Source: Thermococcus kodakarensis KOD1 (GTDB taxonomy: Archaea; Methanobacteriota_B; Thermococci; Thermococcales; Thermococcaceae). Taken from it: 32,000 bases of DNA. The stretch lies in assembly GCF_000009965.1 (NCBI RefSeq), contig NC_006624.1, positions 1,620,001 through 1,652,000 of the forward strand, read 5' to 3'. The notes under the pieces are model-generated. The model did no database searches, was not told where the DNA came from, and worked only from the letters and a program-made list of their open reading frames with translations. The position numbers were made by a program, and so were the translations under genes. Below, piece after piece: positions 5,039 through 6,450 of the stretch. Position 1 is the stretch's first letter. Every line of letters starts with the position of its first letter.

Positions 5039-5404
5039 AGGAGGGCCTTTCAAAGAGGGAGAGGTAATCCTCCTGCCGTTTCCCTTCAACGACCTCCAGA
5101 ACGTGAAAACGAGGCCAGCCCTCGTCCTTTCGAGCGAGAGCTTCAACAGGAAGAGCAACTCAATCATAGTGGCTCAGATAACTCCAACCTGAAAAGCGGG
5201 TTTAAAGAACTCAACGTCCTGATAGCGGACGAGGACCTTGACAGGTATCCAGGAACAAGGCCGATAATACCCAGCATTGTCAAGCCCTACGTGATTTTCT
5301 CAGTCAACAAAAGGATGGTCATCAAGAGAATCGGCCTCCTGCGGGAGGAAAAGCTAGCCGAGGTCTACGAAAGCCTCATGAAGGCGCTCGACCTCACTCA
5401 GTAA
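5007..5404 (+). pseudogene. MazF/PemK-family toxin, interrupted by a 1-nt frameshift at about 5183
   Basis: Frame A (5007-5192) reads ...FKEGEVILLPFPFNDLQNVKTRPALVLSSESFNRKSNSIIVAQITPT*. The frame shifted by one base continues SNLKSGFKELNVLIADEDLDRYPGTRPIIPSIVKPYVIFSVNKRMVIKRIGLLREEKLAEVYESLMKALDLTQ* (stop at 5402-5404). Restoring one T in ATAACT(T)CCAAC yields the family-typical ..AQITSNLK.. junction. Confidence 0.75.
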
Positions 5405-6299
5405 CGCCCTTTATGTCCACGTGGACAAAGGCCCTCTCCACCTCTGGCATCTCCTCGATCCTCTTCTTGACTTCCTCGCTGATATCGTGGGCCCCCTTGA
5501 GTGTGATTTCCGGTGGAACTTCAATGTGAAGCTCAACGTGGAGTTTGTTCCCCACGTAGTGTGCCCTGAGGTCGTGGACTCCCAGGACGTTTGGGACGCT
5601 CATGGCGCGCTTCCTAATCTCCTCGCACACCTCAAAGGGCGGGGCGCTTCCTGTGAGGTAGCCAACGTTCTCAAGGATTATCTCCGCCGAGACCTTGACG
5701 AGGAAGCCCGCAACAACCAGCCCGGCGAGGGCATCCCCATACTTGAAGCCGAGCTTCTGAAGACCGAGACCCACGAGAACCGCAACGCTGCTGAGGGCGT
5801 CGCTCCTGTGGTGGTAAGCGTCGGCAACTAAGATTTGGCTTTTGAGCTTCCTGCCGACGTAAACGGAATAGCGGAACATCAACTCTTTGGCAAGAATGGA
5901 AAGGACTGTAACCCCGAGCATTAGGGAGTTTACCTCAATGGCCGTGCCATGGAGAAGTCTGAAGAGTGAATCCCTCCCAATCTCGTAGGCCACCAGGAGG
6001 AGAGCCTCGCTTATGAGAAAGGCCACCAGGGGCTCAAAGCGGGAGTGTCCGAAGGGATGGCTTTTGTCAGGGGGCTTTGAAGAAACCCTCATCCCAAGGT
6101 AGCCGATGACGCTCGTAACCACATCGCTGAGGGAGTGAGCTCCGTCCGAAATCAGGGCTATGCTCGAGTAGAGAAACCCAACGACCAGCTTGAGCACTGA
6201 GAGGAGAAGGTTTCCAACTATCGAGACCCATATGGGGCGGTAGAGCTCCTCCAAGGGCCACCCTCCGGGGTTTAAACGAATTAAACAACCAACATGCAC
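5394..6299 (-). CDS. cation diffusion facilitator (CDF) divalent-metal efflux transporter
   Basis: It carries LISDGAHSLSDVVTS and HHRSDALSS (the CDF TM2/TM5 metal-site motifs), PFGHSRFEPL, and a C-terminal cytoplasmic domain. The start is uncertain. The options are the GTG at 6299 and the TTG at 6254, which is preceded by GGAGGGTGG and by TTTAATTCGTTTAAA; I favour 6254. Confidence 0.85.
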   Translation of the reverse strand: MHVGCLIRLNPGGWPLEELYRPIWVSIVGNLLLSVLKLVVGFLYSSIALISDGAHSLSDVVTSVIGYLGMRVSSKPPDKSHPFGHSRFEPLVAFLISEALLLVAYEIGRDSLFRLLHGTAIEVNSLMLGVTVLSILAKELMFRYSVYVGRKLKSQILVADAYHHRSDALSSVAVLVGLGLQKLGFKYGDALAGLVVAGFLVKVSAEIILENVGYLTGSAPPFEVCEEIRKRAMSVPNVLGVHDLRAHYVGNKLHVELHIEVPPEITLKGAHDISEEVKKRIEEMPEVERAFVHVDIKGVTE

Positions 6300-6304
6300 A
6301 ATGC

Positions 6305-6358
6305 GGTCAGTCCGTCACTCCCTCGTCACAGCTCGGACAAGGCTGAACTCATCATCCC
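6305..6358 (-). ncRNA. C/D box sRNA candidate 2 (2'-O-methylation guide)
   Basis: The reverse strand reads GGG-AUGAUGA(C)-GUUCAGCCUUGU-CCGA(D')-GCU-GUGACGA(C')-GGGAGUGACGGA-CUGA(D)-CC. This is the exact archaeal layout 7-12-4-3-7-12-4, with a GG/CC terminal pairing. A TATA-like TTTTAAG (6385-6379) is centred about 24 nt upstream of the 5' end. Confidence 0.7.
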
Positions 6359-6390
6359 AGAAAAGGTAGAGGATGGGACTTAAAAGGGTT

Positions 6391-6446
6391 GCTCAGCGAT
6401 CACCTTTCCTTCCTCACCGGTCGGTTCGCCCATCACTCATCATCGC
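6391..6446 (-). ncRNA. C/D box sRNA candidate 1 (2'-O-methylation guide)
   Basis: The reverse strand reads GCG-AUGAUGA(C)-GUGAUGGGCGAA-CCGA(D')-CCG-GUGAGGA(C')-AGGAAAGGUGAUCG-CUGA(D)-GC. It has the same D' (CCGA) and the same 3-nt loop as candidate 2. The second spacer is 14 nt rather than 12. A TATA-like CTTAAAC (6473-6467) lies about 24 nt upstream. Confidence 0.55.
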
Positions 6447-6450
6447 AGGG

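Follow-up and report, generated by a model that had tools for sequence, protein, structure and literature searches.

Expression, conservation and predicted 16S rRNA targets of the box C/D guide RNA sR60 (Tko-sR57) of Thermococcus kodakarensis

The sR60 locus and its transcript

The locus described here lies within a 32,000-nucleotide stretch of the Thermococcus kodakarensis KOD1 genome (NC_006624.1, positions 1,620,001 to 1,652,000; hereafter the window, with positions counted from its first letter), the genome being a single contig of 2,088,737 bp with 52% G+C. When the whole window was searched with the Rfam models, two minus-strand matches exceeded their curated thresholds: sR60 (RF01309) scored 79.5 bits at 6359-6305 (gathering score 50, E 2.5e-18) and sR1 (RF01152) scored 55.6 bits at 6447-6391. 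The sR60 match was full-length, covering model positions 1-55 of 55, and a search of the organism's own genome with the sR60 model returned the same single match. Comparison with published sRNA tables, which had been proposed along with the original prediction of a guide RNA at this site, found the locus present as Tko-sR57. In Table S5 of Jäger et al. 2014 (PMC4247193), a transcription start site (TSS) at genome position 1626358(-) bears the label 'sR60, TKOcandSno28, Tko-sR57' and a second TSS, at 1626445(-), the label 'sR1, Tko-sR58'; the coordinates of the flanking genes TK1817 and TK1818 also agree with that table. Since window position 6358 is genome position 1626358, the locus is the Tko-sR57 gene itself. 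sR60/Tko-sR57 is an ordinary, already known guide RNA, catalogued and known as transcribed since 2014.

Read along the minus strand, the RNA has the layout of a box C/D sRNA (Table 1). Box C lies near the 5' end and box D near the 3' end, with a short terminal stem around both; internal D' and C' boxes are separated by a short loop, and the GA dinucleotides for the tandem G.A pairs are kept. Two 12-nt guides lie between boxes C and D' and between boxes C' and D. At the outer ends, UGG and then a single G precede box C, while CCG and then CAUU follow box D.

Table 1. Features of the sR60 locus and of the adjacent sR1 gene, in window coordinates.
Feature	Position	Strand	Basis or predicted role
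sR1/Tko-sR58, 63-nt RNA	6385-6447	-	reads start at 6447 and end at 6385
TATA-like TTTTAA	6380-6385	-	22-27 nt upstream of the mapped start; read from sequence
Mature sRNA sR60/Tko-sR57, ~60 nt	6300-6359	-	raw reads, published TSS, Rfam
Box C, AUGAUGA	6349-6355	-	read from sequence
D' guide GUUCAGCCUUGU, 12 nt	6337-6348	-	predicted to pair with 16S 848-858, N+5 = G852
Box D', variant CCGA	6333-6336	-	read from sequence
K-loop spacer GCU, 3 nt	6330-6332	-	read from sequence
Box C', GUGACGA	6323-6329	-	read from sequence
D guide GGGAGUGACGGA, 12 nt	6311-6322	-	predicted to pair with 16S 1355-1364, N+5 = U1358; also fits tRNA-Asp C32-C42
Box D, CUGA	6307-6310	-	read from sequence
Terminal stem 3' half, CCG	6304-6306	-	pairs with UGG at 6359-6357

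The locus is not silent, as the original prediction had allowed that it might be: in raw paired RNA reads (2026 run), a discrete RNA covers 6359-6300 at a depth of ~12,000, with flanking depths in the same run of ~20 at 6233-6287 and ~100 at 6365-6375. The ends of the sequenced molecules were sharply placed, 3247 starting at 6359 and 2856 stopping at 6300. In contigs from a 2014 run, a poly(A) tail immediately follows minus-strand position 6300, so that both the strand and the 3' end of sR60 are settled; the mature 3' end lies five nucleotides beyond the Rfam match. sR60 is transcribed from its own start at 6358/6359 as a discrete ~60-nt RNA, and it is a genuine, expressed member of the box C/D class. 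The original prediction had named the right locus when it gave the interval 6305-6358, and its two 12-mers, which read on the minus strand, and their positions are correct; the RNA itself is slightly longer, starting at 6359/6358 and ending at 6300/6301. Non-reference read letters at 6360, 6363, 6381 and 6384 were considered as possible RNA editing. This was rejected, the positions lying just outside the RNA ends, and because the letters run on into adaptor they were taken as library linker.

sR1, which lies 25 nt upstream of sR60 and has its own mapped start, is likewise a minus-strand box C/D sRNA, with guides that differ from those of sR60. Within the 25-nt gap after sR1, overlapping the 3' end of sR1, lies the TTTTAA motif; from its sequence and position we infer that it is the putative TATA box, or promoter element, of sR60. 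A back-joint from 6448 to 6385, found in 14 reads, indicates a circular form of sR1, and none is listed for sR60. In the Rnl circularisation paper, sR60 is absent by coordinate or alias. On the downstream side, the longest open frame of the neighbouring gene (5394-6299, minus strand, 301 aa) begins with a GTG at 6299, the base next to the sRNA 3' end (6300), and the published start of TK1817 is at window position 6254. The low read depth of ~20 across 6233-6287 fits either the shorter form of TK1817 or weak read-through from the sRNA.

Guide complementarity to 16S rRNA

16S and 23S rRNA are each encoded by a single gene, that for 16S being at C1:2022864-2024352. For 16S rRNA, position 1 is the 5' end as defined by Rfam (P. 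abyssi numbers are ~+22), and E. coli numbering was taken from a MAFFT alignment of the organism's own 16S with rrsH of MG1655. The D' guide pairs with 16S 848-858 through 10 Watson-Crick pairs at guide positions 2-11, extended by a position-1 G.U, and the D guide with 16S 1355-1364, again through 10 Watson-Crick pairs at guide positions 2-11. The 16S segments to which the two guides are complementary are both universally conserved. By the N+5 rule, the nucleotide addressed by the D' guide would be G852 (E. coli G902), just 3' of the GCAA loop of helix 27, and that addressed by the D guide U1358 (E. coli U1406), at the decoding-site end, or top, of helix 44. In the 16S sequence the two targets are 506 nt apart.

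The 16S segments quoted in the original prediction were not taken from this genome. Both quoted 10-mers occur in the organism's own 16S gene (CAAGGCUGAA at 849-858 and CCGUCACUCC at 1355-1364), with the quoted flanks exact. Its assignment of the D guide to the U1406 equivalent and of the D' guide to a particular G of the 900 region is borne out by the alignment, and the 10 contiguous pairs that it described at positions 2-11 are present for both guides, the D' guide gaining the extra G.U at position 1. When the 12-mers were compared with the organism's own 16S, 23S and 44 tRNAs, their best matches were indeed at the named 16S sites, apart from a tie with tRNA-Asp in the case of the D guide.

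Among 3000 random 12-mers, 2.3% have, somewhere in 16S and 23S rRNA, a run that includes position 5 and contains 10 or more Watson-Crick pairs, and by the same criterion shuffled versions of the two guides do so in 2.9% of cases; the chance of two such guides in one RNA is ~5-8 x 10^-4. Comparison of homologues provides stronger evidence than this chance estimate. Of 97 genomes of the family, 92 have an sR60 match above cut-off; all 6 genera are represented, and the gene is essentially single copy. A set of 70 parsed sR60 sequences from six genera was compared, and both guides are 12 nt long in every one. Positions 2-11 of the D guide are invariant in 70/70 homologues, as are positions 4-11 of the D' guide. 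Variation is found at position 12 of both guides (in the D guide, G in 39, U in 19 and A in 12), at positions 1-3 of the D' guide, in the spacer and in the terminal stem. Box C reads AUGAUGA in 49 homologues, AUGAAGA in 13 and AUGAGGA in 8, and box D is CUGA in 69/70. The K-loop spacer, 3 or 5 nt long, occurs in 19 versions among the 70, and all three pairs of the terminal stem are formed in 64/70, the inner two pairs being compensatory across genera (GG/CC, CC/GG, AA/UU). On the side of the substrate, neither the two 16S target segments nor the N+5 nucleotides differ among ten genomes from five genera. Changes at guide position 12 or 1 often add a pair with 16S (U12 with A1365 or A859; C1 of the D' guide with G848), and in one genus the D' guide reaches up to 12/12 pairs.

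The T. kodakarensis RNA carries a D guide identical to the family consensus (Rfam RF01309 and Pyrococcus) and differs from it in the internal boxes, where CCGA/UGACGA stands in place of the consensus CUGA/UGAUGA. The variant is common to 22 homologues; 46 combine CUGA with UGAUGA, and two are mixed. The K-loop U of D' and the facing U of C' are both C in T. kodakarensis, and the two boxes co-vary. As the C/C forms all fall in one genus, they possibly represent one or very few evolutionary events. The D' guide differs as well: positions 1-3 are UGU in T. kodakarensis and GGA/GAA in Pyrococcus, and with UGU the 16S duplex is longer, growing from 8 to 10 Watson-Crick pairs plus the G.U. That the D' duplex of Pyrococcus-type homologues is only 8 bp (positions 4-11) counts against the G852 assignment. 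A second 16S segment, GCCAGGCUGAAG at 958-969 (C1:2023821-2023832), has the 8-mer AGGCUGAA in common with the helix 27 target. With pairing confined to positions 4-11, D' guides of the Pyrococcus type match 16S 958-969 and the helix 27 site equally well; the T. kodakarensis D' guide clearly favours helix 27.

The original prediction had also raised the prospect that the two sites belong to a different guide. A genome scan gave 619 box-flanked candidate half-units, a C/C' box being required besides the D-like tetramer, which alone is far too permissive. Of these, the two sR60 guides alone make at least 8 Watson-Crick pairs with either site, and no other comparably paired guide was found among the 619. 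One guide of the catalogued sRNA Tko-sR16 (CAUCGGUCUUGU followed by CUGA, genome C1:~316157, minus strand) places its N+5 on G852 through 7 Watson-Crick and 3 G.U pairs; with this pairing it is probably not a real second guide for G852. Exact 12/12 complements of the D' guide (two) and of the D guide (one) at other places in the genome were rejected as targets, being within chance: shuffled guides reach such complements in 8% (D') and 35% (D) of trials. Overall, we are highly confident that the locus is the archaeal box C/D guide RNA sR60 (Tko-sR57), a predicted methylation guide for 16S G852 and U1358.

tRNA-Asp as an alternative target of the D guide

The tRNA-Asp(GUC) gene lies at C1:1769612-1769689, and its anticodon arm ACUGUCACUCCC and 16S 1354-1365 are essentially one paired base apart. 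With C32-C42 of this tRNA, positions 2-12 of the D guide make 10 Watson-Crick pairs and one G.U. The total exceeds the pairing with 16S by one, and the N+5 nucleotide is U35, the middle anticodon base. tRNA-Asp could accordingly be the real substrate of the D guide, or an additional one, with a predicted 2'-O-methylation of U35 and the D' guide still acting on 16S. The tRNA segment is identical in five other genomes of five genera, tRNAs are known targets of Pyrococcus C/D sRNAs, and the Lowe snoRNA database predicts a C/D-guided methylation of 'tRNA-Asp(GUC) at U35' in P. furiosus (per Wolff et al. 2020, PMC7668247). Wolff et al. 2020 also report that U35 methylation and several other predicted sites were undetected by mass spectrometry in the tRNAs they analysed, a set that may or may not have included P. 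furiosus tRNA-Asp.

The match to the tRNA is, at the same time, a trivial consequence of the one-base difference between the tRNA loop and the 16S segment, by which any guide for the U1406 equivalent would also fit tRNA-Asp, with its N+5 on U35. Two positions of the D guide separate the substrates. Position 12 pairs only with tRNA C42, which is invariant, yet this position drifts among the 70 homologues, and where it is U it pairs with 16S instead of tRNA-Asp. Position 3 is an invariant G, which makes a Watson-Crick pair with 16S C1356 and a mere wobble with tRNA U33. Further, ribose methylation of position 35 is not known in any tRNA, which also counts against a tRNA-Asp substrate. As judged by these patterns of guide variation, 16S is favoured over tRNA-Asp as the selected target of the D guide, and we consider it improbable that tRNA-Asp is its real or additional substrate.

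Methylation and a possible role in 30S assembly

The protein partners of a C/D sRNP are encoded in the genome. PF01269 at C1:152814-153476 (336 bits) adjoins PF01798 at 153665-154342 (260 bits), marking the fibrillarin and Nop5 genes, and PF01248 at C1:1157895-1158173 (116 bits) marks the L7Ae gene. On the established mechanism of archaeal C/D sRNPs, L7Ae would bind the terminal K-turn and the internal K-loop of sR60, and a Nop5 dimer bearing two fibrillarins would span the K-turn and the K-loop. Each fibrillarin would then methylate the target 2'-OH facing the guide nucleotide at the fifth place upstream of box D' or box D, the expected products on nascent 16S rRNA being Gm852 and Um1358. The double guide may also transiently hold the helices of G852 and U1358 together during 30S assembly, because its targets are distant in sequence, yet lie in helices that pack together near the decoding centre.

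A literature search found no experimental Gm852 or Um1358, or their equivalents, and no paper on sR60 in Pyrococcus; for RiboMeth-seq of T. kodakarensis it gave only a P. furiosus study, with deposited data (GEO GSE153501) but without its methylation site list. In the P. abyssi 30S model at 3.2 Å, which was checked by LC-HRMS, the ribose methylations are Am373, Cm1376 (E. coli 1402) and ac4Cm250 only; the surroundings of E. coli 1400-1407 are described in detail, with no methyl on the U1406 equivalent, and there is none at the 902 equivalent (PMC7005279). This negative is weak, because few 2'-O-methyls are visible at 3.2 Å and far fewer were modelled than guides exist. Higher-resolution T. kodakarensis ribosome structures (PDB 6SKF/6TH6, 2.5-3 Å) include annotated Gm residues.

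Guides to the same regions of the small subunit rRNA are known or predicted elsewhere. Helix 27 is a conserved predicted methylation hotspot in archaea (PMC4644070, PMC7994747), and predictions for helix 44 have been described as 'relatively sparse' (Dennis et al. 2015, PMC4644070). Predicted S. acidocaldarius and N. equitans guides are also C/D guides to the top of helix 44, but aim at the neighbouring E. coli A1408 and not 1406; they belong to other lineages and are likened to sR60 by target only (PMC4644070). For the second site, yeast snR41 belongs to the C/D class too and directs methylation of a G within this conserved GCAAGG region (18S Gm1126; PMC4344503, PMC5199042). Human Gm1328 was rejected as the counterpart of yeast Gm1126, since it corresponds to yeast Gm1269/1271. 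Yeast Gm1126 would be the equivalent of E. coli G902 or of its neighbour, by arithmetic from E. coli 966 = yeast 1191 and an assumed 926 = 1150, and we treat this as a lead only; a literature search found no support for yeast G1150 = E. coli G926.

That neither site is among the modifications of the P. abyssi 30S model (PMC7005279) would agree with guides that act mainly as a 16S assembly chaperone, tethering helix 27 to the top of helix 44, with methylation absent or substoichiometric at one site at least. The targets, 506 nt apart, lie in helices that nevertheless pack together around eL41, which helices 27, 44 and 45 surround in that model (PMC7005279), and Dennis et al. 2015 (PMC4644070) have proposed such a role where the two targets of a double guide are far apart. 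The canonical register of both duplexes, with the target at N+5, and the intact D' and D boxes are needed for methylation and needless for tethering, and we regard a mainly chaperone function as very improbable. Tentatively, and as a possibility that we would not put higher, ribose methylation of the U1406 equivalent (Um) and of the G902 equivalent (Gm) may be real, unreported and sR60-dependent in the decoding centre of Thermococcales, with the double guide also tethering helix 27 and the top of helix 44. In a weaker variant of this sR60-dependent methylation, the D guide would be bifunctional and methylate tRNA-Asp U35 too.

Beyond annotation, the sR60 locus itself is of little import, being present in Rfam and in the published T. 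kodakarensis catalogue and relying on a textbook mechanism. The ambiguity between 16S and tRNA-Asp illustrates that a database guide-target call can hang on a one-base difference between substrates. Some value lies in the target assignment, as U1406 is in the decoding-site/aminoglycoside pocket and G902 is beside the helix 27 tetraloop. The T. kodakarensis ribosome modification map is currently dominated by ac4C, m5C and m4,2C; a ribose methyl at either site, if true, would be an addition to the modification map of the hyperthermophile ribosome.
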